DNA of 64,000 nt from Bacillota bacterium (GTDB taxonomy: Bacteria; Bacillota; UBA994): positions 64,050 to 128,049 of the forward strand of contig WSXW01000008.1 in the NCBI GenBank assembly GCA_009773495.1, written 5' to 3'. Each line of letters starts with the position of its first letter. Positions within the stretch are counted from its first letter, which is position 1. Of the stretch, positions 35,689-57,749 are shown piece after piece. The position numbers and the translations under genes were made by a program. A model generated the notes under the pieces. That model was not told where the DNA came from. It was given only the letters and a program-made list of their open reading frames with translations, and ran no database searches.

Positions 35689-38600
35689 ATGAAGAAGATA
35701 TTTGCTCTTCTATTAAGCGTAGCGATGGTTGCTAGCTTGTTTGTAGGCGTAGCTTTTGCGGCTGGCGGCACTTACACCGTAGCCTACAAAACTGGCGCAT
35801 CTACTGCGGCTGGCGCTAACTCTACTCTAGTATTTACTGTAACTCCGCCCGTAAGTGGCACAGCCACAACAGTCAAAGTCGACTTTGCGGCTAGCGGTTT
35901 CGTGCCCATCGGCGCTGCTACCTGGGCCGGCAGTACCAACGTTACCTCGAATATTGTAGGCAACGTTATCACCATCGCTCGCACCGAAAATATAACTACA
36001 GGCACTGTTGAAATCCCTGTTCGCAACCCGCTGACTGCTAAGGTAGTCAACCAAGCGGTTTCTGCCGATGCTTTTGTAGTTACCACTGGCACCCCACCTA
36101 CTGCCCTCGTAGTTGCTACTTCTGTTAGCGTTCTTAATGTTAACTACACAGTTACCCCTAGCATAACCACACCCGTTATCGGTGGAACATCTACTGTTTC
36201 TTTCAATGTTACCCAAGGCGGGGCTGCTGTAACTGACGCCTTAGTTTACAATTTTTACAGAGGATTGACCCTGTTGACTCACGGCTCTACCTCTACTGGC
36301 AACTTCAGTGCAGCTATTTCCTTCACTGCTGAACCCGGTGCTTTTTCTCAAGAGTACACCGTTAACGTTGCAAAGGCTACTGACACTACTGTCACTGGCA
36401 GTACAAAGCTTACAGCTCTTTACAACCTCACTGTTGACGGCATTACCACAGTTAAGTATCTCGACGCTCGCACTCTCACCGGCAGGCTTACCAATGCTGC
36501 TGGCACGGGCATTGCTAACGCTCCCATAACTCTTCGCAACAAGACAAACGCTTCTGATGTAGCTAATGCTACCACAGCTGCTGACGGCTCCTTCGCTATG
36601 ACCGCAGTGTTCGCTGATGCTGCTGTTTATGCATTCAACGTCGGGACTGTTGAGTATTCTACATTTACCGTTGCTGGACTTGACCTCACAGTAGCAGCAG
36701 CGCCTACCTCCATCGTGAAGACTCTCGGCACAACTGCTATGACCTTCACTGTGAGGCTTCCTGGCACCACAACCACTCCTACAAATGCAAATCCTGAGAT
36801 CCGCATCCTCAATCCAGACGGCACTGTCCGTCTAGATTGGACCTCTACTTTGGTATGGTCCGCTCCAGCTGACCTAGCTACCGGTACCTACAAGGTAGAA
36901 GCTCGCTGGGAAGATACTGCTAACGGTAACACCCCTACGGTTTCTGACCGTACCGGTTCTACCACCTTTGCAGTAACGAATCCTTCCAAGCTCAACGTAT
37001 CCTATGCTCCTACTGTCGCTGTCGACGGCGTACTCACCGTTGGTGCTAATGGCGTAGCCATCACCATCCGTGACGTTGCTGGCGCTGGTTTCGTGGGCGC
37101 TACTGCCACCGCAGCTCAAATTAAGCAGGTTCTTATCACTGTTACTGGCCCTCTCACATCGGCAGTAACTATTAATACCGCTGTTACTGCTCCTGGTGCG
37201 GCGGCTCCTTGGAATGGCTCCCTAATTACTGTAACCCCCACGTTCAACATCGAACAAGCTGGCAACATCGTTGTTACTGGTACAGTGACCTTCGGTGACA
37301 ACTCCACGGAGACCTTCACCAGGACCTATACCAACAACGGCTGGATTGTTACAACTGAGAAGGTTCTCGGCACTGTTGGCGACGTAGTAACCCTCCGCGC
37401 AGTAGTTACTACCGCTGCTGGAGTACCAGTTAACAATGCTATCGTTACTTGGACTGGCGTAGCCAACGCCTTCTTGACCGCGAAGGACGCTGCCGGCGTC
37501 TGGATTACCCCAGCTGCCGCAGTACCTGTTGATGGGTCCATTACAAACATCAACAACGGCGTATACGAAAAGGAAGTTAAGCTCAATACGAACGGTGATG
37601 TAACAGTTGGTGTGACCACCACTGCCCTTGCCGCTCGCGCTTCTCTTGTAGCTAATATTACCGGCCAAAACGTTTACACCGTAACTCCTAGCGTCTCTTC
37701 CGTAATTGCAACGCTTGCTACCCAGACCGTCAGGGTTGCTGTTACTAACGCTTCCGGCGCTGCTATGACCAACCTCCAGGCTCTTGATGTAACTGGTTCT
37801 ACCGGCGTTCTAGCGGCTCCTCTCGCTATCACTGATGCTACCATGTACGATGCAAATGCCGACGGCATTGTGGATGGCTACCAGTTCAGCGTTTCTCCGC
37901 TGGCTAGCGGTACCCTCACCATTACTGCTAAGACCGATAACGGCAACAAAATTGGCGTTGGGACCGTAGCTGTAGTAGCTCCTGGCGTTACCGTAACTGC
38001 TGCTGCTAAGGCTACTCAGAACGTAACTGAAAAGCTCAATGTTAAGGTTAACGACATGACCGGTACCCCTGCAGCAGCTCGCCCGATCTCCGTTAGGGTT
38101 ACTGCAGTCGGCGCATTCATGGAGCTCAAGACTGACGTTGCCACACCTGTTATACTCACAAATGGTACAGTTGAGAACCAAGCCCACCTAGTAGCTGCAG
38201 CTGCCGCTGAGCACAAGCTTCTAGTTACCGCTTGGGACTTTGTAGAAGCTACCCCCGTTGCTCCTCTTGTACGCGTAGAAGTCAGCTACAATGGCACAAA
38301 CTGGGTCAAGGCTGCTGACCTCGCTGTAACTCCTCTTGACATCACACTCAATAGCGACACCATTTTCGTAGGTGGCGTTAACAAGATCGATGCTACCGTT
38401 ACCGACGCTCACGGCGTAGCTTACGCTGGCAAGGCTGTTGCTGTTGCTGGTTCTACCGGCACAACCGATGCTAATGGTAAGGTCAGCCTGTTTGTTAACC
38501 CAAGCAGCACTGGCACCGCTACTCTTACCGTCGCAACCAGCCGCACTGGTGTAACCGCTAACAAGACGATCACCATCACTGCTGACAGCGTGAAGCCTGC

Positions 38601-39516
38601 TGTGGCTATCACCTCGGCTCCTGTTTCCGAAAAGGCTACCTATCTGCTGACGGGTACTTTCTCTGATAACCTCGGCGTAGCCAATATCTACGTAAACGGC
38701 GCCCCAATTCCGTTTATCGCAGCTCTTGGTACATTTGAGAGGACAGTTACCCTCGTAGATGGCGCCAATGTGTTCACAGTATTCGCCTTTGATGCAGCAG
38801 GCAATGGTGCCACGACCTCAATTACCGTTTCTTATGCTGCACCAATTACTCCTGCTCCAGTAAAAGATACTACCCTGCCGACCATTGTGATCGCCGCTCC
38901 AGCTACCGTTGCCACCGACTTTACGGTTGTTACCGTGACGGCTACCGACGCTGGCGGACTCGCACAAGTTGTTATCAACAATGTGCCGAAGTTCTTCATC
39001 CCTGGCAACACTGCAGTTGTAACCGAGCGGATCTCCCTCAATGAAGGTCCAAACGTAGTGACTGTAAATGTTGCCGACGTGGCTGGCAACTGGGCTACTT
39101 CGACGAGGACTATCACTTATACTAAGCCTACACCTCCTCCTGCTCCAGTTCCTGTAACGCACGTTATCACCATCGGCAAGGCTGATCCTGCCTTCGGTCT
39201 TGACGTACCTGCAGTAGCTAAGAATGGCCGCCTCATGGTTCCCTTCCGTTGGTTCGGCGAACGCATCCTCGGCGCTACAGTTGACTATAAGGTAGTTGCC
39301 GGTGTTGAGATCGTAACCCTCCATAAGGGTGGCACCCATGTTGAGCTAACCCTCAACAGCGCTATCGCTAAGGTTAACGGAGTTGCTGTTGCTCTTGATG
39401 TAGCTGCTTACGCTGAAGCTGGCCGTACACTCGTTCCGGCTCGCTTCCTAGCTGAAGCATTCGGCTACAAGATTGAGTGGCATCCCGCTACCAACAACGT
39501 TACCATCACCAAGTAG
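35689..39516 (+). CDS. large secreted Thr/Val/Ala-rich surface protein with Ig-like repeats and C-terminal copper-amine-oxidase-N-terminal-like (cell-wall-associated) domain
   Basis: Signal peptide MKKIFALLLSVAMVASLFVGVAFA. 1275 aa, low-complexity beta-rich. C-terminus RTLVPARFLAEAFGYKIEWHPATNNVTI matches Cu_amine_oxidN1. Strong RBS and a rho-independent terminator. Confidence 0.7.
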   Translation: MKKIFALLLSVAMVASLFVGVAFAAGGTYTVAYKTGASTAAGANSTLVFTVTPPVSGTATTVKVDFAASGFVPIGAATWAGSTNVTSNIVGNVITIARTENITTGTVEIPVRNPLTAKVVNQAVSADAFVVTTGTPPTALVVATSVSVLNVNYTVTPSITTPVIGGTSTVSFNVTQGGAAVTDALVYNFYRGLTLLTHGSTSTGNFSAAISFTAEPGAFSQEYTVNVAKATDTTVTGSTKLTALYNLTVDGITTVKYLDARTLTGRLTNAAGTGIANAPITLRNKTNASDVANATTAADGSFAMTAVFADAAVYAFNVGTVEYSTFTVAGLDLTVAAAPTSIVKTLGTTAMTFTVRLPGTTTTPTNANPEIRILNPDGTVRLDWTSTLVWSAPADLATGTYKVEARWEDTANGNTPTVSDRTGSTTFAVTNPSKLNVSYAPTVAVDGVLTVGANGVAITIRDVAGAGFVGATATAAQIKQVLITVTGPLTSAVTINTAVTAPGAAAPWNGSLITVTPTFNIEQAGNIVVTGTVTFGDNSTETFTRTYTNNGWIVTTEKVLGTVGDVVTLRAVVTTAAGVPVNNAIVTWTGVANAFLTAKDAAGVWITPAAAVPVDGSITNINNGVYEKEVKLNTNGDVTVGVTTTALAARASLVANITGQNVYTVTPSVSSVIATLATQTVRVAVTNASGAAMTNLQALDVTGSTGVLAAPLAITDATMYDANADGIVDGYQFSVSPLASGTLTITAKTDNGNKIGVGTVAVVAPGVTVTAAAKATQNVTEKLNVKVNDMTGTPAAARPISVRVTAVGAFMELKTDVATPVILTNGTVENQAHLVAAAAAEHKLLVTAWDFVEATPVAPLVRVEVSYNGTNWVKAADLAVTPLDITLNSDTIFVGGVNKIDATVTDAHGVAYAGKAVAVAGSTGTTDANGKVSLFVNPSSTGTATLTVATSRTGVTANKTITITADSVKPAVAITSAPVSEKATYLLTGTFSDNLGVANIYVNGAPIPFIAALGTFERTVTLVDGANVFTVFAFDAAGNGATTSITVSYAAPITPAPVKDTTLPTIVIAAPATVATDFTVVTVTATDAGGLAQVVINNVPKFFIPGNTAVVTERISLNEGPNVVTVNVADVAGNWATSTRTITYTKPTPPPAPVPVTHVITIGKADPAFGLDVPAVAKNGRLMVPFRWFGERILGATVDYKVVAGVEIVTLHKGGTHVELTLNSAIAKVNGVAVALDVAAYAEAGRTLVPARFLAEAFGYKIEWHPATNNVTITK

Positions 39517-39531
39517 ACCCTCCTCGGCATA

Positions 39532-39564
39532 GCAAAGACCCCCGCAAGGGGGTCTTTGCTTTTA
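39532..39564 (+). terminator. rho-independent terminator after surface protein gene
   Basis: gcaaagaccccc-gcaa-gggggtctttgc followed by tttt. Confidence 0.75.
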
Positions 39565-39686
39565 AGGACAGGGACTGGACAAAGGGGATGGTTCTTTTTG
39601 TTTGCTCTGTTGCTATTTAGAAGGAAAGAGCAGGGCTGAGGTAGAATAGGTAATGCTAGACAAGTATCGGGAGGTGCTCATATATA

Positions 39687-40082
39687 ATGAAAGCAATGAT
39701 TAGACTGCGCATAAGTTTGCACGAGGCCCACTATGGGGGAGGCCTTGTGGATGGGGCCAGAATCTTAGCCCTGTTCGGCGATGTGGCTACCGAGCTGCTG
39801 ATCCGTCACGACGGCGACGAAGGCCTCTTTGTCGCCTACGATATGGTAGAGTTTAAGGCCCCGACCTTCGCCGGCGATTATATCGAAGTCCACGGGGAGA
39901 TCACCAAAGTAGGGAATACCTCGCGGAAAATGGAGTTTGCGGCGTACAAGGTGATTAGGGCGCTTAACGACCCCGAGAATCCCTCCGCAGCGGAAGTCCT
40001 GGATGAGCCGATGCTGGTGTGTAGGGCGAGTGGGACGTGTGTGGTTCCGGCTGCGAAGCAGCGAATTAAACATGAATCATGA
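39687..40082 (+). CDS. kal: hotdog-fold protein, candidate 3-aminobutyryl-CoA ammonia-lyase (Kal)
   Basis: 131 aa hotdog-fold protein directly upstream of kce, the usual partner in lysine-fermentation clusters. RBS gggagg. Confidence 0.5.
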
Positions 40083-40091
40083 AACATGACC
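40068..40091 (+). repeat. left inverted repeat of IVS-like cassette 1 (aaacatgaatcatgaaacatgacc)
   Basis: 23/24 match to the reverse complement of 40516-40539. Overlaps the last codons of kal. Confidence 0.65.
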
Positions 40092-40127
40092 TTCACGGGG
40101 GAGTGGGTGCCCCATGCATACTCGAGC

Positions 40128-40497
40128 ATGCCACTTGTGAGGCAGGCCCACAAACGCGCTAGCAGTCTATAAGTCTTCACTAAACTTCCCTAGGGAAGAG
40201 TTATATGGCATTACCAGTCAGCTTAGGCGTGCTGTTGTATCTGTGCCTACGAACATCTGCGAAGGTAAGGGCCATCGGAACGACCGCGAGCTGCATCGCT
40301 ACCTTGGTATCGCAAGGGCGTCTTTATCTGAAGTAGTCTATCTAATGTTCTTAGCACAGGATTTAGGTTTTTTGCCGGAAGACCAATATAGATGCCTTTT
40401 TACGCAAGCAGATGAGATTAGCAGGATGATAGTGGGTCTACAGGGCTACATCAGGAAAAATGTTGCTAGACGCAAAGGCTCTGCCAAAGCTCCCTAG
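40128..40497 (+). pseudogene. four-helix-bundle protein (Avd / 23S rRNA intervening-sequence protein family, PF05635-like), frameshifted
   Basis: ELYGITSQLRRAVVSVPTNICEGKGH...ASLSEV core in one frame; MPLVRQAHKRASSL N-terminus in another frame, with a stop at 40138. Confidence 0.6.
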
Positions 40498-40515
40498 GCG
40501 GGTCTTAGGGCTTTT

Positions 40516-40539
40516 GGTCATGTTTCACGATTCATGTTT
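40516..40539 (+). repeat. right inverted repeat of IVS-like cassette 1
   Basis: ggtcatgtttcacgattcatgttt is the reverse-complement match of 40068-40091. Confidence 0.65.
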
Positions 40540-40565
40540 CATGATTACTAAAGGGAGGTGCCCCC

Positions 40566-41381
40566 ATGTCCAAACTCATCATAACCGCCGCACTCGTTGG
40601 TGCAGAGGTTACGCGTGAGCAGACGCCTTATATTCCGTTAACGCCCGCAGAGATTGCCGACGCAGCGTTCGACTGCTACCAAGCTGGCGCAAGTATCGTA
40701 CATATTCATGTGCGGGATAAAGATGGAAAAGCAACACAAGACAAGGCCGTTTTTGCAGAGACTATTAGGCTCATTAAAGAGAAGTGCGATATTATCGTGC
40801 AGATATCTACCGGTGGGGCTGTAACCGCAAGGATAGAGGAGAGGATTGCGCCTATAGGTCTTAAGCCTGAAATGGCCACCCTCAGCACCGGAACGGTTAA
40901 CTTCGGGGCAGATATTTTCCTTAACACCCAAGAGTATATGGAGAAGATTGCCCGGGCCATACAAGAGAACGGTGTAAAGGCTGAGGTAGAGGTCTTTGAA
41001 GTGGGAATGATACAGAATGCTCTCAATCTAGTTAAGAAGGGCTTACTGTCTGAGCCGGTCCACTTTGACTTTGTGATGGGCGTGCCGGGGGCCTTACCTG
41101 GTACACCAAAGAACTTGATGCATTTAATCGAGAGTATCCCCCAGAATGCTACGTGGACGGTGGCTGGTATAGGCCGGGCTGAGCTGCCCTTGGCAGTGAT
41201 GTCCATTGTCCTTGGCGGCCACGTGCGGGTGGGGTTTGAGGATAACATTTTCTACTCACGCGGAGTTCTAGCTAAGAGCAATGCGGAATTGGTAGCTCGC
41301 ATTGTGCGGATAGCAAAGGAGTGCGGCCGCGAGGTCGCCACCCCCAACGAAACCCGCAGAATGCTTGGGATAAAGCAGTAA
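40566..41381 (+). CDS. kce: 3-keto-5-aminohexanoate cleavage enzyme (BKACE/DUF849 family)
   Basis: 271 aa. The N-terminus MSKLIITAALVGAEVTREQTPYIPLTPAEIA is typical of Kce. RBS gggagg. Confidence 0.75.
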   Translation: MSKLIITAALVGAEVTREQTPYIPLTPAEIADAAFDCYQAGASIVHIHVRDKDGKATQDKAVFAETIRLIKEKCDIIVQISTGGAVTARIEERIAPIGLKPEMATLSTGTVNFGADIFLNTQEYMEKIARAIQENGVKAEVEVFEVGMIQNALNLVKKGLLSEPVHFDFVMGVPGALPGTPKNLMHLIESIPQNATWTVAGIGRAELPLAVMSIVLGGHVRVGFEDNIFYSRGVLAKSNAELVARIVRIAKECGREVATPNETRRMLGIKQ

Positions 41382-41406
41382 AGCAGTAGGGACGGAGCCT
41401 ACTGCT
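41382..41406 (+). repeat. conserved hairpin (9-bp stem, GACGGAG loop) immediately after kce stop; second copy at 27159-27183
   Basis: agcagtagg-gacggag-cctactgct. The copy after manC differs at three stem positions; all three changes are G·U wobble-compatible in RNA. Confidence 0.5.
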
Positions 41407-41551
41407 TCCTAGGGCTCAGTGTTTTATCGGGCGCAGGTGTCTTTTTGCTTGTCCGATGTACAGGCATAAATTTGACATTAGGGCAGTATAGTCTATCAAC
41501 AGCAAGAATTGGAGCAGCATAGCAGTTGAACTAAATAAGGAGGTTTGTTCA

Positions 41552-44176
41552 GTGAGAAAGAAGCTTGCCATCTTCGTAGTTCTGATGTTGCTGGTATCCG
41601 TAACTGCTGGTGCAGGAAACTACCCCACATTGCAGCCGCTGACTCCCGCACCGATCATGTGGTCCGGTACTATGATTGACGAAACCCCTGTAGCGTGGTT
41701 TGTTGAACTCTCCGGCTCGCCGTTAGTAGAGGGCGGAAATTATACAGCTCTTTGTAAAGAAAAAGATGCTTTCCGCTCTCAGGTGAAAGACGCTAAGCTA
41801 AAGGTCAAAGAACGATTTGCCTTTGATAGCCTATGGAACGGGTTTTCTGTGAGTGTTGCTCCCGAGGATGTTGACAAGCTCTCCCTGATTCCAGGGGTCA
41901 AGGCCCTATACCCTGTGGTCTTGTTCTCTCTTCCTCCGGTTTATCCTACCGAAACCCCAGAGCTTTTTACGGCCCTTGCTATGACTGGAGCGGACTATGC
42001 ACAGAATGAACTAGGGTTTACCGGCAAGGGAATTAAGGTCGGCGTAATTGACACCGGTATTGACTATACTCACCCGGATTTAGGCGGCGGCTTCGGCCCA
42101 GGGTACCGCGTGTACACAGGGTATGACTTTGTGGGGGATGCCTTCGATGCAAACCCTGCCAATGCTACGTTTAATCCCATCGCCGCACCGAAACTAGACC
42201 CCATGGATAAGGCCGGCCATGGCACCCATGTGGCCGGAATTGTGGGGGCGAAGGGTAGAGTAAAGGGGGTAGCTCCAGAAGTAACCTTTGGTGCCTACAA
42301 GGTATTTGGCACCGTGGGTTCGACCACGGCTGACGTAATATTGGCAGCCATGGAGCGGGCTCTTGCTGATGATATGGATGTAATTAACATGAGTATCGGT
42401 GCTGCATTCCAGTGGCCGCAATATCCCACCGCTGTGGCCAGCGACCGCTTAGTTAGAAAGGGTGTAGTAGTGGTTGCCTCTATCGGCAATAGCGGCACTA
42501 GCGGCTTGTATGCTGTGGGTGCTCCTGGCGTTGGCAAAGACGTTATTGGTGTAGCTTCCTTTGATAACAGCCATGTATACTTGCCGTCTTTCACGGTTTC
42601 TCCTGGTGGGAACGCCGTGGGTTACACAGCTGCTACAGCCGCTCCAGCCCCACCAAAGTCGGGCACTTTCGCTATGGCCCGTACTGGTACAAAAACCTCA
42701 CTGGCTGACGCAGCGAATCCTCTCCCTGCCGGCAGCTTAATCGACAAAGTCGCGCTGATACGGCGCGGTTCAGTAAGTTTTTATCAAAAGGCTCTCAATG
42801 CCCAAAACGCAGGGGCCAGAGGGGTGGTGCTGTACAATAACGCTCCAGGCAGTGTAAGCCCGACTGTGGCAGGTGCTGTTCCTATCACTATCCCCGTAGT
42901 GATGATTTCTCAGGTTGAAGGTGAACAAATCGACGATCTGTTTACTGCAGGCCATACTGTAGGAATTACCTGGACCGAAAATATGGTCAGTTCACCCAAT
43001 GCTACAGGCGGTCGCATTTCTTCCTTCAGCTCCTATGGTTTAGCACCTGATCTCAGCCTGAAACCCGACCTAGGTGCCCCCGGCGGCCAAATTTACTCCG
43101 CTTACCCCATGGCTCTTGGCGGCTATGCTACTCTGAGTGGCACTTCAATGTCTTCCCCTCATGTAGCAGGTGCGGCAGCACTGTTATTGCAGGCCAGACC
43201 CGAAATTTCGGCCAAGGCTGTCCGCACGATTTTGCAGAATGCTGCCCAGCCTAAAAACTGGCAAGGAAATCCTGGCCTAGGGTATCTTGATCAGGTTCAC
43301 CGCCAGGGTGCCGGCATGATTAATATTACAGACGCAATCTTAGCTACCACCAAGATAGAGCCATCCAAACTGGCTCTGGGGGAAAGCGAGTTTGGTCCGT
43401 CGGTAAGTACAATTAGCATTGAGAACGATGGCCCTTCAGCCGTCACCTATACCTTATCACACACACCCGCGCTCGCTACCGGTCCAAACTCCTTCTTAGT
43501 TAGCGCCCAAGCGGGCTTTGCCACTGTAGAATTCAGTGTGCCCAGTATTACTATTGCGGCTGGTGCAACGGCAACTGTACAAGCAACTGTTACGGCCCCT
43601 GGACTGGCGGAGGGTGCGTTATACGGTGGGTACCTAGTGTTCACTGGTAGCGACGAGAGGATCCTACGCGTACCTTACGCTGGCTATAAGGGCGACTACC
43701 AAAAGAGAATAGTACTTACCCCCACTGCTAATATCTTTCCGTGGTTGGCAAGCCTAGAAGGTGGTTCGTACTATAAGCAGGGTGATGCCACCTTCACTTT
43801 CACAAATGGAGACATCCCTTACTTCCTAGTACACTTTGACCATCACCCTCAACTGTTCAAGGCCGAAGTCTATGAGACAGGAACAGGCAAATACATGCAT
43901 CAGGCCTTTGAATACAAATACCTACCCCGCAACTCTACCGCAGGTGGCTTCTTTGCATTTGCCTGGAATGGAGTTGTTACCAAGGGCAACAAAGAATCGA
44001 TGATACCCAATGGTTCTTACGTGGTAAAATTGTCGGTACTAAAGGCGCTTGGTGACGCTTCTAATCCAGAGCATTGGGAAATGTGGACGTCACCTGTGAT
44101 AAAAGTTGAAAATGGAGAGAACCCTGTGGATAAGCCCATAGGAAACGACAAGGCCGAGGCTCCTAAAGACAAGTAG
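41552..44176 (+). CDS. S8 family serine peptidase (subtilisin-like, cell-envelope type) with signal peptide, PA-domain insert and C-terminal beta domains
   Basis: VGVIDTGID, HGTHVAG and GTSMSSPHVAG catalytic triad motifs. 874 aa. RBS aaggagg. A terminator follows. Confidence 0.85.
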   Translation: MRKKLAIFVVLMLLVSVTAGAGNYPTLQPLTPAPIMWSGTMIDETPVAWFVELSGSPLVEGGNYTALCKEKDAFRSQVKDAKLKVKERFAFDSLWNGFSVSVAPEDVDKLSLIPGVKALYPVVLFSLPPVYPTETPELFTALAMTGADYAQNELGFTGKGIKVGVIDTGIDYTHPDLGGGFGPGYRVYTGYDFVGDAFDANPANATFNPIAAPKLDPMDKAGHGTHVAGIVGAKGRVKGVAPEVTFGAYKVFGTVGSTTADVILAAMERALADDMDVINMSIGAAFQWPQYPTAVASDRLVRKGVVVVASIGNSGTSGLYAVGAPGVGKDVIGVASFDNSHVYLPSFTVSPGGNAVGYTAATAAPAPPKSGTFAMARTGTKTSLADAANPLPAGSLIDKVALIRRGSVSFYQKALNAQNAGARGVVLYNNAPGSVSPTVAGAVPITIPVVMISQVEGEQIDDLFTAGHTVGITWTENMVSSPNATGGRISSFSSYGLAPDLSLKPDLGAPGGQIYSAYPMALGGYATLSGTSMSSPHVAGAAALLLQARPEISAKAVRTILQNAAQPKNWQGNPGLGYLDQVHRQGAGMINITDAILATTKIEPSKLALGESEFGPSVSTISIENDGPSAVTYTLSHTPALATGPNSFLVSAQAGFATVEFSVPSITIAAGATATVQATVTAPGLAEGALYGGYLVFTGSDERILRVPYAGYKGDYQKRIVLTPTANIFPWLASLEGGSYYKQGDATFTFTNGDIPYFLVHFDHHPQLFKAEVYETGTGKYMHQAFEYKYLPRNSTAGGFFAFAWNGVVTKGNKESMIPNGSYVVKLSVLKALGDASNPEHWEMWTSPVIKVENGENPVDKPIGNDKAEAPKDK

Positions 44177-44367: not shown

Positions 44368-45036
44368 GTGAAGGGTAAAATAAGGATAGCACAGGAAGCT
44401 CTCGCCGGACTCAAAGACGGAATGACTGTTATGATCGGTGGGTTCTTGGGGGTAGGTGCGCCAGAGGGGCTAGTGACAGAGGTGTTGGAGAAGGGCACTA
44501 CGGATCTCACCGTAATCGGAAATGATACTGGCTTCCCGGATAAGGGTATCGGCCGTTTAATCGTCGCCAAGAAGATTAAAAAGGTCATTGCCTCGCACGT
44601 CGGCACTAACCCCGAGACGGGGCGGCAGATGAATGCTGGGGAGACAGAGGTAGTCTTGGCACCACAGGGTACGTTGGCGGAGCAGGTTCGCGCTGCTGGT
44701 GCCGGCCTTGGGGGGATACTCACGCCAACCGGCGTAGGCACAGTAATAGAAGAGGGAAAACAGAAGATTACTGTAGACGGTAAGGAATACTTACTAGAAC
44801 TACCTATACATGCGGACTATGCACTTATTAGGGCTTATAAGGCTGACGAAAAAGGCAACCTGGTATATCGCCGTTCCGCACGCAATTTTAACCCTCTTAT
44901 GGCTATGGCCGCTAAGGTAGTTGTGGCTGAGGTGGAGCAAATTGTAGCGGTAGGAGAGATAGATCCTGACGAAGTCGTAACCCCAGGGCTTTTTGTGACC
45001 TACCTCGTGAAAAAGGGGGGCTCTGGCTGTGAGTAA
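44368..45036 (+). CDS. 3-oxoacid CoA-transferase subunit A (AtoD/ScoA-like)
   Basis: 222 aa family-I CoA-transferase alpha subunit with typical glycine-rich N-terminal region. Confidence 0.8.
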
Positions 45037-45688
45037 GGATATTAAGCGCGAGCGCATCGCCAGGCGCGTGGCCATGGAGCTAAGCGATGGCATGGTCGTC
45101 AACCTCGGTATTGGTATACCGACCTTTGTGGCTAATTTTGTGCCTGAGGGTATCGATGTAATGTTCCAGTCGGAGAACGGTTTTGTGGGCTTAGGCCCGG
45201 CCCCGAGCCCGGATAACATTGACCCAGATATCACTAACGCCGGAGCCCAACCGGTAACCATACTCCCGGGCGGAGCCTGTTTTGACTCCGCTACTTCGTT
45301 TGCAATTATCCGCGGTGGGCACGTGGATTTAACGGTATTAGGGGCACTAGAGGTAGACGAAAAGGGTAACCTCGCTAACTGGATGGTGCCAGGCAAGATT
45401 GTCCCAGGTATGGGCGGAGCAATGGATTTGACCGTAGGAGCCAAGCGGGTAATCATTGCTATGGAACACACTGCTAAAGGTAACCCTAAAATCCTGCCGT
45501 TGTGCACGCTGCCCCTCACAGCGAAGGAGCAAGTGGATCTGATTGTTACGGATATGGCGGTGATTGAGGTGATTCCGGCGGGATTGGTCTTGAAAGAGAT
45601 TGCTCCGGATACCACGGTGGAAGAGGTTGTCGCTGCCACAGCTGCGAAGCTGATAGTGTCGGCTCATGTAGCTGTCATGGCTGTTTAG
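45029..45688 (+). CDS. 3-oxoacid CoA-transferase subunit B (AtoA/ScoB-like)
   Basis: 219 aa beta subunit with the catalytic-Glu region motif ENG ([11 protein letters not shown]). Overlaps the subunit A stop. Confidence 0.8.
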
Positions 45689-45755: not shown

Positions 45756-46400
45756 ATGAAATTCTTCTTAGACACTGCTAACGTCGACGAGATCCGCAAA
45801 GCAGTAAAGCTCGGCGTTATAGCCGGCGTTACCACCAACCCCACCCTCATAGCCAAGGAGGGCAAGGAGTTTCATCCTACCGTAAAGGAAATCTGCGCCA
45901 CCACACCCGGACCTGTGAGCGCAGAAGCGATCAGCCTAGACGTGGAGGGCCTGCTGCGCGAAGCCCGCGAGCTAGCCGCGCTTGCTCCTAATGTTGTCGT
46001 TAAAATACCCATGACCGAAGCTGGGCTCGAAGCTGTTGCTACCCTCACTAAAGAAGGCATTAAGACCAACGTGACTTTAATTTTCTCTGCCAACCAAGCC
46101 CTCCTCGCTGCCCGCGCTGGCGCTAGCTACGTATCTCCCTTTGTCGGGCGCTTAGACGATATCTCCAGCCCCGGCATGAAGGTAGTCGAAGACATTGCTG
46201 ATATCTTCGCCATCCACGACCTCCCTACTGAGATAATTGCCGCCTCCATCCGCCACCCACAACACGTGCACGAAGCAGCCCTCGCTGGCGCGCATATCGC
46301 TACGGTGCCGTACAAGGTAGTGCAGCAGATGATAAGTCATCCGTTGACGACGAGTGGGATAGAGAGATTTATGGATGATTGGAAGAAAGTGAGTAAGTAG
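45756..46400 (+). CDS. tal: fructose-6-phosphate aldolase / short transaldolase family protein
   Basis: [16 protein letters not shown]...VTTNPTL with Schiff-base Lys context (VVVKIP). RBS gaggagg. The ORF track starts at 45711. Confidence 0.8.
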
Positions 46401-46406
46401 ACTTTA

Positions 46407-46428
46407 GTTCTCAGTTCTCAGTGCCCAG
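46407..46428 (+). repeat. left inverted repeat of IVS-like cassette 2 (gttctcagttctcagtgcccag)
   Basis: 19/22 match to the reverse complement of 46851-46873. Contains an internal tandem agttctc repeat. Confidence 0.6.
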
Positions 46429-46447
46429 AAAAGGGGTGTGATCTCAT

Positions 46448-46801
46448 ATGCCCAAAGGATTTGTGCAGTTGAAGGTGTGGCAGCAGGTCAGGATAATGGC
46501 TAAGGAAGTATATAACTTGACAGAACAGTTCCCCAATAGGGAACAGTACTCTTTGGCATAGCAGATGCGTAGAGCCGCTGTATCAGTGATGTCAAACATC
46601 GCTGAAGGGCAAGGTAGGTTTACACGGAAGGACTTCCGCCACTTTCTTTTTATGTCCCGAGGTTCTCTACTGGAGTTGCACAGTTGTCTTATTCTTTCTA
46701 TCGACTTGGGTTATCTTGACCGAGACCCTGTATTCGCTTGTTACAAACACTGCAACCAGATTGGGCGTATGCTAAACGGCCTTATTGCATCATTAGTATA
46801 G
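46448..46801 (+). pseudogene. four-helix-bundle protein (Avd / 23S rRNA IVS protein family) interrupted by in-frame TAG at 46559-46561
   Basis: MPKGFVQLKVWQQV...EQYSLA*QMRRAAVSVMSNIAEGQGR...GSLLEL. The stop replaces the conserved Ser of the ...G L T/S S Q... motif. Confidence 0.6.
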
Positions 46802-46850
46802 AACGAAAGACGGGGATGCAGCAGAAGCCTAGGACTACGAGTGCTGGGAT

Positions 46851-46873
46851 CCGAGCACCGAGAACTGAGAACC
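46851..46873 (+). repeat. right inverted repeat of IVS-like cassette 2
   Basis: ccgagcaccgagaactgagaacc. Preceded by a small palindrome gtgctgggatccgagcac. Confidence 0.6.
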
Positions 46874-46894
46874 AACCAGATAAGGGGTGAGATT

Positions 46895-50785: not shown

Positions 50786-51778
50786 TTACCTCCTCGTTCC
50801 TCTCCTCCTTACCTCCACATCCCCCAACACCTGCTCCCACCGCTGAACCCAGGTGTGGTCGCGCAGGAGCCGCGCCCGCGCATTTTCTGCTAAGGTAGTT
50901 AGCTTACTAGGATGAGGCAGGTAATTCTTCAGCTTATGCACTAGCTCTTCGAGCGAACTGTAACCAACTATCTCCGTACCGTACTCAAAGTACTTCTCCA
51001 TCTCCGGGAATTCCTCCGTAAACACCGCGGTTCCGCAAGCCACAGCCTCAAACAGCCCAACCTTCACATTTATAAATCCAGCCACAGTCTTAGAGAACGA
51101 AATATAGGCCCTGCCGGTGTTCAGCGCCTTTACATGCTCCACTCCGTTTACCTGTCTACTGCGGGGAATGAGGCCCCACCGTTTCCACCCCTTGCCGTAT
51201 AGGCCTACGTTAAAATGCTTATCTAACTCCTTTACAGCCGCCAGTCTATCTGCGCGGGGGTGGCCGACAATAATCACGTCATAAATCTTCTTCACACTAG
51301 GCATAGGTCTATGAAACTCGGGCGAGGCCGCAAATGGCAGCAGCCGTGCTTTCACGCCGATGGCTTCATACTGGGCTATCGACACCTCAGCGTTGGTATA
51401 ATAGAGGTCAAAAAGACTAGCGTAATGCTGGCCTTGCGCAGCAAAGACGTCTGGGTCAGATAGAGCAATCCCGACGGTAACAATTCCACGCCTGCGTAAC
51501 TCTCTATGCATATCGGGTGTTAGACTCATGCCGCCGGCGTTACACACTACGGCGTCAGGCGTATAGTTCGCCATTAATTCCAGCATCTTATCGTCGTTTA
51601 TCCAGTTTACCGCCTGGTGCTCGGGATCACTATCTTTGTGTAACCAGGGCGATGGTCTACCGGTATAAAGCTCTGTATCAACAATCTTTGCCTCCGTTAC
51701 GCCCTTCAAATCCTTGGCCATCAAGGCCACAATATCGTTGCCACCCATCCAATAGCTGCCAAAGTGTAGAACTTTCAT
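50786..51778 (-). CDS. CgeB-family (spore maturation-like) glycosyltransferase, DUF3880/GT1-like
   Basis: Start MKVLHFGSYWMGG... with RBS aggtg at the ATG on the minus strand at 51778-51776. The 38-codon ORF-track N-terminal extension is unsupported. Confidence 0.55.
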   Translation of the reverse strand: MKVLHFGSYWMGGNDIVALMAKDLKGVTEAKIVDTELYTGRPSPWLHKDSDPEHQAVNWINDDKMLELMANYTPDAVVCNAGGMSLTPDMHRELRRRGIVTVGIALSDPDVFAAQGQHYASLFDLYYTNAEVSIAQYEAIGVKARLLPFAASPEFHRPMPSVKKIYDVIIVGHPRADRLAAVKELDKHFNVGLYGKGWKRWGLIPRSRQVNGVEHVKALNTGRAYISFSKTVAGFINVKVGLFEAVACGTAVFTEEFPEMEKYFEYGTEIVGYSSLEELVHKLKNYLPHPSKLTTLAENARARLLRDHTWVQRWEQVLGDVEVRRRGTRR

Positions 51779-52021
51779 TAAATAACACCTCATATCATGT
51801 CGCTTGTCGCTTGGGGATTGCCGCCCGTTAGCCGCCAGCCGCCAGCTTCTAGGCTTGTGCATCGTGGTAAACCACGATGTCTTCGGGGGCACAGCAGTCT
51901 TCTGCTACAGCATAGCACTTCTCATAAAACACGAAAAGAAAAAAGCTGTTTGCATAGACCTCGTTTAATGCGGCAAGAATACAAGAGAACTTGCCCGTAA
52001 CAAAAGGCGAGGTGAAAATCT

Positions 52022-57473: not shown

Positions 57474-57749
57474 AGAATCGTTCCTCCTTTTTTTGCTCCT
57501 AAGTAATCATATTATAATAAGCGCCCTACAATATCCTACAGAAAAATACTAAAAAATACTTTATAATTCAGAATATTATGTCATAGTGAGTGATAGAACA
57601 AATGAGCACATAGCACATGGCGCATGGAACATAGTGTGCGGGGCGCTCTTAGAAAGCGGCAAGCGGAAGGCGGAAAGCGCTAACGGCTGACGGCCACTCT
57701 ACAAGAGACAAGGGACAAGCGACAAAATCCCACTCAATTCAAATCTTAC

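Follow-up and report, generated by a model that had tools for sequence, protein, structure and literature searches.

In the 64,000-nucleotide stretch of DNA analyzed here (the window), the genes kal and kce are separated by a small cassette, W1, in which a broken gene of the PF05635 four-helix-bundle (4HB) family is enclosed by two inverted arms. At a distance of 6 kb, the spacer between the transaldolase (TAL) gene and glpX holds a second cassette, W2, of the same anatomy with other heptamers; a further PF05635 gene with flanking inverted repeats, which the initial annotation had proposed to look for, was thus found within the window itself. The features of both loci are as follows:

39687..40082, + strand: kal (3-aminobutyryl-CoA ammonia-lyase); NCBIfam NF052388 KAL equivalog, 196 bits versus a cut-off of 160
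40065..40091, + strand: IR-L, 5′ arm of W1; tandem heptamers ATTAAA CATGAAT CATGAAA CATGACC
40086..40497, + strand: 4HB (PF05635/TIGR02436) pseudogene of W1, placed by profile matches and alignment with intact orthologues
40492..40510, + strand: inner hairpin CCCTAGG-CGGGT-CTTAGGG, overlapping the 4HB stop codon of W1, just inside IR-R
40516..40546, + strand: IR-R, 3′ arm of W1; tandem heptamers GG TCATGTT TCACGAT TCATGTT TCATGAT T
40551-59, + strand: Shine-Dalgarno sequence of kce, AAAGGGAGG
40566-41381, + strand: kce (3-keto-5-aminohexanoate cleavage enzyme); NCBIfam NF052387 KCE equivalog, 438 bits versus 382; PF05853
46404..46429, + strand: 5′ arm of W2; TTA GTTCTCA GTTCTCA GTGCCCA GA; begins 3 nt past the stop of the transaldolase gene (45756-46400)
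46448..46801, + strand: 4HB gene of W2; PF05635, 127.2 bits; 37% identity with the 4HB of W1
46850..46875, + strand: 3′ arm of W2; TCCGAGC ACCGAGA ACTGAGA ACCAA; directly followed by the Shine-Dalgarno sequence and start of glpX (ATG 46895)

The 24-nt inverted repeats with 23 of 24 complementary positions described in the initial annotation were found as placed: the IR-L core AAACATGAATCATGAAACATGACC (40068-40091) recurs as its reverse complement at 40516-40539 with one mismatch in 24, and 100 shuffles of the window gave 0.00 such matches. When extended, the arms reach 27 nt (40065-40091 / 40516-40542) at 93% complementarity, and these arms of 24–27 bp lie 424 nt apart with the PF05635 ORF inside. 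They are, however, not the plain repeats they had been taken for. Each arm is a tandem heptamer array, in W1 with three copies of the unit CATGAAN, and because of this tandem structure a second, perfect pairing register of 15 nt exists (40075-89 / 40532-46). The close fit of the arms between the two genes was also as described: the kal TGA stop (40080-82) and the last six kal codons lie within IR-L, and IR-R is followed after 5–9 nt by the kce Shine-Dalgarno sequence. The NF052388 profile stops at residue 121 of the 131 residues of kal. Among the GTDB species representatives, which do not include the source organism of the window, the protein most similar to kce shows 80% identity and comes from candidate division NPL-UPA2 bacterium GPS119. 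Inside the cassette, the hairpin next to IR-R resembles a weak terminator.

The gene within W1 is indeed frameshifted and PF05635-like, scoring 98.2 bits with TIGR02436 (cut-off 24) and 99.7 bits with PF05635 (cut-off 33.8). Its start is probably ATG 40086, inside IR-L, or GTG 40107. Compared with the intact orthologues P0122, P0123 and P0125, 2 bp are deleted after 40165, which leads to a premature TAA at 40170-72; the rest of the frame is open from 40141 to TAG 40495-97. This deletion was found in four of four same-species metagenome contigs. The 4HB gene of W2 is broken by a CAG-to-TAG change at 46559-61, which is polymorphic within the species (L002 intact, L001 mutated). Both copies in the window are therefore pseudogenes without the intact ORF of about 110–130 aa of PF05635/TIGR02436, which the orthologues retain, yet the arms of both are intact. 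The conserved 4HB core Q-x-RRA-x-x-S-x-x-x-NI-x-EG is present in W1 (SQLRRAVVSVPTNICEG) and W2 (QMRRAAVSVMSNIAEG). The two elements have lengths of 478 nt (W1) and 472 nt (W2), and their arm units (CATGAAN and GTTCTCA) are unrelated.

A ribosome-binding site and start just inside IR-L, mimicking those of kce, had been proposed as well. This part of the initial annotation did not hold: ATG 40114 is not in frame and lacks conservation among orthologues, and likewise GTGCCCCATGCA, which in W1 encodes V-P-H-A of the 4HB N-terminus, is not conserved. Mimicry at W2 was also discarded, both sites simply matching the extended Shine-Dalgarno consensus AAGGAGGTGATC. On the + strand of the W1 cassette, no sigma-70-like promoter was found, and an Rfam search of 39000-42000 (E up to 1) gave no match. 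A foreign origin on the basis of base composition was rejected, since the GC contents of both cassettes (47.7% and 47.0%) are not distinctive against the window mean of 49.4% (sd 5.3). Scanning the window for more doublets of the W1 or W2 unit revealed none. Orphan heptamer arrays of period 7 occur in the window at 57605-57725, including one at 57701-57725.

At least six related metagenomic lineages (L005/6/7, L139-142) have an intact orthologous cassette between kal and kce, and L002 and L056-58 have one between TAL and glpX. In the closest two cassette-free relatives, L008 and L009, the spacers of both loci measure ~40 bp and contain no repeats. These empty sites, which the initial annotation had suggested looking for, support its notion of an inserted element; given the orthologues in at least six lineages, the insertion into this genome is not a recent one. 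The 4HB gene of the TAL|glpX cassette shows pS values of 0.55 and 0.81 versus 0.49 and 0.74 for the adjacent glpX, and intact orthologues in the same spacer together with this host-like synonymous divergence argue against a recent insertion. Among relatives, a pN/pS of 0.14–0.21 points to purifying selection on the 4HB protein. Vertical stability of the cassettes extends over synonymous saturation, and nothing points to recent copies. By this comparison, the cassette is an old, vertically inherited element of the intervening sequence (IVS) type riding on operon transcripts and not a fresh insertion.

The two arms of a cassette change together. The IR-L unit of W1 has its orthologous counterpart in the AATCATG arrays of L139 and L140. 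In the TAL|glpX arms, the unit pairs shift jointly from GTTCTCA/TGAGAAC to GTTCCCA/TGGGAAC and then to GTGCCCA/TGGGCAC. In the arm alignment of the TAL|glpX cassettes (A2), 86.9% of the cells were paired, versus 25–50% with the partner slid; the corresponding values for the alignment of orthologues (A3) were 82.7% versus 23–39%. Both alignments contain 8 two-sided pair changes. As far as aligned sequences can tell, arm complementarity is actively maintained, and it is complementarity, not arm sequence, that is conserved.

The layout is not restricted to the two loci of the window. A flanking inverted repeat scoring at least 12 was found at 63 of 66 non-redundant 4HB genes sampled elsewhere, a narrow sample drawn from one Firmicutes clade, one metagenome-derived subfamily (two peptide motifs) and Xanthomonadaceae. 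As a control, the upstream flank of one locus was paired with the downstream flank of another under stricter mismatch scoring, which resulted in a mean of 8.2 and a 95th percentile of 10; under this scoring, 50 of 58 real loci reached at least 12. Arm self-identity at period 7 was 0.72 compared with 0.19–0.31 at other periods (63 loci). The median element length of the sampled loci is 477 bp, the heptamer unit varies by locus, and the upstream neighbour is co-oriented with the cassette in 32 loci and opposite in 4. In addition, the 5′-arm units show a polarity (AG in 50/63 units; AGT in 33 versus ACT in 6), which hints at a sequence-specific recognition that a simple stem-only model leaves unexplained. 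A profile of relatives matches PDB 2gsc (XCC0516) with 1.8e-37; this crystal structure, 2GSC, is that of the Xanthomonas member. The Xanthomonas orthologues of the crystallised XCC0516 lie in the accB|accC spacer between GGGAATC arms. On this comparative evidence, gene and repeats are one conserved unit inside operons, including accBC in Xanthomonas.

Among the closest known counterparts are the IVSs of 23S rRNA, which RNase III removes from the precursor, with no re-ligation afterwards. In Coxiella, the IVS is 444 nt long; RNase III cuts its terminal stem of 28 bp in the middle, and the loop contains an ORF of the PF05635 family (PMC4990558). With the 23S IVSs of Coxiella and Leptospira, W1 and W2 share the protein family in the loop and the size class (444 versus 478 and 472 nt; PMC4990558). 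Further common traits are terminal inverted repeats with a stem of about 24–28 bp, the placement within a host transcript, and an ORF prone to decay while the stem persists. W1 thus has the IVS anatomy, in which a stem of about two helical turns closes a loop several hundred nucleotides long that may contain a PF05635 ORF, but lies in an mRNA operon spacer, between kal and kce, and not inside the 23S rRNA gene (helix 9, 25 or 45). The IVS-like architecture in a protein-coding operon had been claimed before and was confirmed here: the element is co-oriented and ~480 nt long, and its stem of at least 24 bp encloses the PF05635 ORF in its loop. Two more differences concern processing and inheritance: excision by RNase III is demonstrated for IVSs, whereas we infer it for the cassette, and the cassettes are inherited vertically and their protein is under purifying selection, whereas for IVSs a sporadic occurrence and possible horizontal transfer have been described. 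None of 80 related metagenomic 4HB loci was located inside an rRNA gene; the link to true IVSs is therefore one of protein family and anatomy only.

Heptamer repeats are also found without the gene. The initial annotation had named repeats native to the kal|kce spacer without the gene as evidence against its reading, and more distant Clostridia (L010, L012, L014, L015) do carry gene-less heptamer inverted repeats there, but of different sequence. Several gene-less doublets on one contig can share a unit (GAGATRC at three loci in L015; two such loci in L012), and Rfam (E up to 0.1) gave no match for these mini-elements. The unit TTGTCSC occurs in cassettes downstream of kce (L057, L140, L006) and in the orphan array of the window at 57701-57725. 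Cyanobacterial STRR sequences, reportedly described by Mazel et al. in 1990, are tandem heptamers as well. In Xanthomonas, 186 GGGAATC arrays and 70–75 convergent pairs are distributed genome-wide (PMC4692102), and the arms of the Xanthomonas 4HB cassette consist of exactly this published unit. Paired tandem repeats of Geobacter metallireducens were termed ‘global regulator sites’ (PMC2700814), and Beggiatoaceae carry TAACTGA repeats (PMC4679880). According to Mrázek-type surveys, as quoted in two of these papers, no other long simple repeat is as over-represented in the intergenic regions of bacteria as tandem heptamers are (PMC4679880, PMC4692102).

Both arms of W1 and W2 as well as the orphan arrays at 57605-57725 belong to this kind of sequence, with at least two to three head-to-tail 7-nt units in intergenic position. 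Like the STRR, Xanthomonas, Geobacter and Beggiatoaceae repeats, the cassette arms have a period of 7 and lie close behind the upstream ORF, mostly between co-oriented genes; convergent (inverted) pairs are frequent, and unit length and sequence vary between close relatives. In contrast to the reported repeats, those described here are arms of a gene cassette in which complementarity rather than sequence is conserved, while the reports discuss G-quadruplexes, protein-binding sites or regulators, and none of those consulted names a PF05635 gene within the pairs. The initial annotation was aware of no description of its architecture for mRNA operons. Inverted heptamer-array pairs in operon spacers were already reported in Xanthomonas and Geobacter, without a link to 4HB genes (PMC4692102, PMC2700814); in the literature on PF05635, TIGR02436, S23 ribosomal protein, STRR and heptanucleotide repeats, we came across none that connects 4HB genes with arms made of heptamers.

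Folding of the kal-kce transcript predicted pairing of IR-L with IR-R, as had been anticipated: the MFE fold of 40040-40570 pairs the W1 arms. The calculated duplex energies are −33.7 kcal/mol for W1 and −32.5 kcal/mol for W2, with a mean pair probability of 0.94 each (for W1 in a 651-nt context). Considering duplex energy, pairing probability and the 32:4 co-orientation, cleavage of the stem at the RNA level is plausible. The cassettes would represent a conserved class of ~470–480 bp in which a promoterless PF05635 gene of ~120 codons lies in the loop of a long-range stem, the stem arms being inverted arrays of 2–8 tandem heptamers. Because W1 lies directly after the stop of the co-oriented kal and before the ribosome-binding site of kce, it would be transcribed by read-through in the operon mRNA. 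In the transcript, a duplex of at least 24 bp may form between the arms, and, by analogy with the equivalent stem of 23S IVSs, RNase III could process it. Such a cut would set the 4HB message free and separate the cistrons on either side while leaving them intact, and this would explain how essential operons such as accBC can harbour an insert. The tandem heptamers most likely offer a route for lengthening and homogenising the stem via replication slippage. Altogether, we consider it moderately likely that W1 is a decayed member of a conserved class of heptamer-stem 4HB cassettes, transcribed with its operon and with a stem processed by RNase III. An excess of G·U among the arm mismatches was absent (58 G·U-type versus 72 A·C-type; binomial p = 0.25); the wobble test therefore gives the RNA reading no support. 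This is not the usual pattern of a stem selected purely as sense RNA, and the arms could instead be kept complementary by a process acting on DNA or by one arm being copied from the other.

Several other explanations were weighed against this account. In REPIN/RAYT systems, a Y1 (IS200/IS605-like) transposase gene, the RAYT, lies between inverted REPs, and identical REP doublets are numerous across the genome. Such systems have in common with the cassette a gene between inverted short repeats, as well as gene-less, hairpin-forming doublets that lie between genes or at the end of genes in operons. In a DNA-level system of this type, which we regard as rather unlikely, the inverted heptamer arrays would function as hairpins of DNA, formed for instance while the DNA is single-stranded in replication. 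The doublets would be bound, maintained or spread by the 4HB protein as a trans-acting factor; the gene-bearing cassette would be ‘autonomous’ and the gene-less doublets non-autonomous, with complementarity arising from copying or repair between arms and not from RNA selection. The lack of G·U bias speaks for it, as do the gene-less doublets with a common unit at several loci of one contig (L015, L012), the recurrence of TTGTCSC in cassettes (L057, L140, L006) and the orphan window array (57701-57725), and the 5′-arm polarity (AGT 33 versus ACT 6), which suggests sequence recognition. The identity of the Xanthomonas cassette unit GGGAATC with a genome-wide array unit points in the same direction (PMC4692102). 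However, the flanked gene encodes a PF05635 helical bundle of ~120 aa without a match to nuclease or recombinase families, and not a Y1 transposase. The arms are tandem heptamers instead of palindromic REPs and differ within one genome (W1/W2; L006a/L006b), in contrast to REPs that depend on one RAYT; no further doublets of either unit are present in the window, and the vertically stable cassettes give no evidence of recent amplification in this lineage. Moreover, a mechanism acting on DNA alone has no need for the 32:4 co-orientation with the upstream gene.

Alternatively, the repeats might be a pre-existing intergenic device that serves the host, for example by stabilising or processing mRNA, by attenuation, or as a protein/DNA site of the IHF/HU or G-quadruplex type, with the 4HB gene as a passenger in the loop. 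Gene-less repeats in the kal|kce spacer of distant Clostridia (L010, L012, L014, L015), the intact window arms around two dead genes, and the published readings as regulator-binding sites or G4 elements (PMC2700814, PMC4692102) are compatible with this. We nevertheless find it improbable: arms at fixed geometry around 63 of 66 4HB genes imply that gene and arms travel together and did not meet by chance, the nearest cassette-free relatives have no repeats in either spacer, and arm sequences in the same spacer are wholly different between lineages, which a conserved protein-binding site would forbid. Terminal inverted repeats, small size and presence/absence among related genomes would also suit an ordinary DNA transposon or a MITE whose ends are recognised by a transposase with its gene at another place. 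This is very improbable, as the arms are not common to the copies of one genome, no direct repeats indicating a target-site duplication were seen beside the arms at W1 or W2, no transposase is among the neighbourhood gene calls, and orthologous copies are as diverged as host genes. We know of no description of Avd genes flanked by heptamer inverted repeats. PF05635 proteins and Avd do have homologous four-helix-bundle folds that form a pentamer (2GSC and 4DWL; PMC10053308), and the Avd models gave weak, sub-threshold matches. Still, it is extremely improbable that the locus is the remnant of a diversity-generating retroelement (DGR) with the 4HB gene as its Avd. The scores remain below the Avd cut-offs (NF033474, 20.1 bits versus 80; PF22296, 19.9 and 31 versus 40), no reverse transcriptase is present within the 15-kb and 12-kb contigs covering the locus, no TR/VR pair was found within 39600-41000, the stretch searched for direct repeats, and the PADLOC defence models gave no hit for the 4HB. 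Of the original label Avd/23S-IVS family, only the 23S-IVS-protein part (PF05635) can be kept.

The preferred reading, that of a transcribed heptamer-stem cassette, allows for a broader, more tentative proposal, which we consider possible but not probable: PF05635 4HB genes and inverted heptamer arrays may constitute one widespread, unrecognised class of elements, in which 23S IVSs are rare rRNA members, gene-less doublets are derivatives, and the pentameric 4HB protein acts on the heptamer stem. The Xanthomonas GGGAATC pairs, the Geobacter ‘regulator sites’, the cyanobacterial STRRs and the Clostridial mini-elements would then be such derivatives, and the protein might, for instance, guide stem processing or generate and maintain the arrays. 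If true, this would explain together the role of the abundant ‘four helix bundle / 23S IVS’ proteins, the origin of rRNA IVSs and the intergenic excess of heptamers. For genome annotation, such cassettes would account for recurrent ~480-bp ‘gaps’ and small pseudogenes within operons. Since cultured, genetically tractable hosts carry the unit, the idea of IVS-like excised segments in bacterial mRNAs is directly testable.

The ORF between kal (3-aminobutyryl-CoA ammonia-lyase) and kce (3-keto-5-aminohexanoate cleavage enzyme), which both score above the cut-off of their NCBIfam equivalog models as expected from the initial annotation, belongs to the 23S rRNA intervening sequence (IVS) protein family (TIGR02436, 3e-28; PF05635, 1.4e-28), confirming the proposed four-helix-bundle (4HB) gene. 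Its bracketing by inverted repeats was likewise borne out: the left arm (IR-L, 40068–40091) recurs once in the 64-kb window, reverse-complemented and with one mismatch, at 40516–40539 (IR-R), and 100 dinucleotide-preserving shuffles of the window contained no such pair. Extended, the arms are 27 nt long with 93% complementarity and 424 nt between them, so that the cassette measures 478 bp in total. As previously described, IR-L overlaps the end of kal, including its stop codon, and the kce Shine-Dalgarno sequence follows shortly after IR-R. Overlooked at that stage was that each arm consists of tandem heptamers (CATGAAT, CATGAAA and CATGACC, and their complement), and because of this array structure the arms can also pair perfectly over 15 nt in a second register. 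Over 21 nt, the AATCATG unit puts a TGA and an ATG into each of the three frames (window 40065–40091; IR-L of the orthologous loci L139 and L140), so that kal ends in the array, which also provides the 4HB ORF with a coupled start. This ORF probably begins within the array in the kal–kce lineage, and the peptide GE(W/L)VP-AY--MPLV is conserved downstream of it. The window copy is frameshifted by a 2-bp deletion, located by alignment with intact orthologues and fixed in the species (5/5 available sequences). In the window, kal and kce have no other lysine-fermentation genes beside them and are flanked by the genes of a 1275-aa S-layer-like protein and of an S8 protease (35689–44176). As an NCBIfam model for a fused KAL/KCE protein exists, the cassette-hosting spacer is absent in some lineages.

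In same-species contigs, a PF05635 gene is annotated between the transaldolase gene (TAL) and glpX. The window has its counterpart:

46404–46875, same orientation as the host genes: second 4HB cassette, between the transaldolase gene and glpX

The two 4HB genes are only 37% identical, and the 26-nt inverted arms of the second cassette use another heptamer (GTTCTCA, complement TGAGAAC). The geometry is alike (472 bp vs 478 bp): the left arm begins 3 nt past the stop codon of the preceding gene, and the right arm ends just 5' of the downstream Shine-Dalgarno sequence. This gene is inactivated by an in-frame TAG (46559–61), which reads CAG in the same-species contig L002 and is thus polymorphic within the species. 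Although both 4HB copies are inactivated, the arms are almost perfect in the window genome. Contig L002 also lacks two CoA-transferase genes between the S8 protease gene and TAL, which are present in the window (44368–45688) and in the same-species contig L001; this is a strain-level indel adjoining the cassettes.

For orthologues, GTDB species representatives were scanned with kce, followed by tblastn. In the closest relatives (NPL-UPA2 GPS119, Firmicutes UBA2296 and UBA994; kce 73–80% identical), the kal–kce spacer likewise houses a 4HB gene. The comparison also provided the empty sites that had been sought in related genomes: the equally distant Peptococcaceae CROMO_A_245 and Bacillota BS524 have spacers of ~40 bp without repeats at both loci, and short spacers were also found in most other genomes of the scan. 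Protein searches with both window 4HB proteins revealed closer, intact relatives, and all of those looked up occupy the orthologous site (L139–L142 in kal–kce, L056–L058 in TAL–glpX). Between lineages the heptamer drifts (GTTCTCA, GTTCCCA and GTGCCCA in TAL–glpX; AATCATG, AATCATT and AGCAYNC in kal–kce), and the orthologue alignments show the opposite arm changing in step.

Pairing between the cassette arms in the orthologue alignments
A2 (TAL–glpX): 29 pairs; 86.9% of cells paired; 25–50% with the partner slid; 8 pairs changed on both sides
A3 (kal–kce): 24 pairs; 82.7% of cells paired; 23–39% with the partner slid; 8 pairs changed on both sides

Both alignments demonstrate that arm complementarity is maintained. 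Compared with L056 and L057, the 4HB gene of the window species has a pS (0.55 and 0.81) close to that of the adjacent glpX (0.49 and 0.74), which, together with a 4HB pN/pS of 0.14–0.21, indicates long vertical inheritance with the operon and purifying selection on the protein in the relatives.

The same organization recurs in most of the 4HB genes sampled. Scanning metagenomes with an alignment built from 20 members of the family yielded 80 loci, none of them (0/80) in an rRNA gene. Of 66 non-redundant 4HB genes with enough flank, Firmicutes loci included, 63 showed an inverted repeat scoring at least 12 when 200 nt of upstream sequence were compared with 260 nt of downstream sequence. Under stricter mismatch scoring, 50/58 loci reached this threshold, while control pairs that combined the upstream flank from one locus with the downstream flank from a different one gave a mean of 8.2 and a 95th percentile of 10. 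Arms have a median length of 27 nt and elements of 477 bp, and arm self-identity reaches 0.72 at period 7 compared with 0.19–0.31 at the other periods from 3 to 11. The unit is locus-specific (AGGGACT, AGTTTCG, AGTACCY, AGTGGCT and others), yet the 5' arm is polar, with AG in 50/63 units and AGT in 33 vs ACT in 6. Neighbours are mostly co-oriented, both upstream (32 vs 4 loci) and downstream (28 vs 13). These data show that the arms belong with the gene as a single conserved unit. XCC0516 (PDB 2GSC), the family member with a crystal structure, has Xanthomonas orthologues that sit between accB and accC:

L143, 1925–2375: XCC0516 orthologue in the accB–accC spacer, GGGAATC-type inverted arrays
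L146, 1987–2426: XCC0516 orthologue in the accB–accC spacer, GGGAATC-type inverted arrays

In X. sacchari, the arms of this cassette are 30 nt long with 90% complementarity. GGGAATC arrays were the subject of Rehm et al. 2015, as G-quadruplex repeats. An exception to the period-7 rule is the family member L130 (4HB match 857–1204), whose 76-nt flanking inverted repeat is not heptameric. At another locus (L121, 627–1128), the 4HB gene lies directly upstream of a co-oriented tmRNA gene (RF00023, 64.6 bits).

Heptamer arrays also occur without the gene. In Clostridia that are more distantly related (kce 68% identical), inverted arrays in the kal–kce spacer surround a 36–100-nt core, which contains a conserved GGCTTCGAAGCC hairpin plus up to two further GC-rich hairpin modules (GTAGGGGCGnnCAnnGGnCGTCC), the latter with compensatory changes. 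The unit of such an element recurs elsewhere on its contig, with L015 having it at three loci:

L010, 3175–3345: gene-less doublet
L012, 1195–1325 and 2143–2239: gene-less doublets
L014, 2145–2255: gene-less doublet
L015, 4077–4213, 7857–7973 and 8811–8893: gene-less doublets

These doublets, which had no match in Rfam, give the impression of a small structured element that is present in several copies and akin to the cassette arms. The window itself contains unpaired arrays:

57605–57725, minus strand: three consecutive unpaired heptamer arrays (TTGTCNC x3, CTTNCCG x3, YATGYGC x3)

Mutually non-complementary, they lie in the spacer of two co-oriented minus-strand genes with neither a 4HB gene nor a partner arm. 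The first of them (TTGTCSC) has the same unit as the arms of the cassettes that L057, L140 and L006 carry downstream of kce, and the three arrays may be relics of lost cassettes. A GCCGCCA array (51825–51846) near the 5' end of a minus-strand ORF (50786–51892) has no partner in the window; GCCGCCA also builds the arms of the cassettes that follow kce in L142 and L005.

The cassette sits behind a co-oriented gene and has no promoter of its own. Folding, as the initial annotation had advised, gave an MFE structure in which the arms pair, with a predicted duplex of about −33 kcal/mol and a pair probability of 0.94. In the transcript, the arms are thus predicted to pair, and RNase III, by analogy with 23S IVSs, would cut the duplex. 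Such a cut would release the 4HB message and uncouple the cistrons, each of which would keep its own ribosome-binding site. A less likely alternative explains arm complementarity at the DNA level, through single-stranded-DNA hairpins, inter-arm copying or a protein acting on the repeats, loosely RAYT/REPIN-like. Room for it comes from the main caveat to the RNA reading: among the arm mismatches, G·U-compatible combinations (58) do not outnumber A·C ones (72). RNA cleavage at the stem, suggested by the IVS analogy, would be the likely mechanism.

Among described systems, the ORF-bearing 23S rRNA IVS comes closest; the cassettes share its anatomy and protein family but differ in location, and their excision is putative. 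Judged by the defining features of DGR Avd, TIR transposons and REPINs, the window cassette is none of these. Inverted tandem-heptamer pairs in operon spacers have been read as G-quadruplex elements in Xanthomonas (PMC4692102) and as IHF/HU sites in Geobacter metallireducens (PMC2700814), and heptamer repeats are an old puzzle in cyanobacteria and Beggiatoaceae (PMC4679880); a tie to PF05635 genes was not found in open-access text. Initially regarded as an insertion into one spacer, the window feature is neither a new insertion nor an isolated case. It represents, in decayed form, a class of IVS-like gene cassettes with heptamer-repeat arms that is widespread and conserved, and the phenomenon is real and broader than first supposed.
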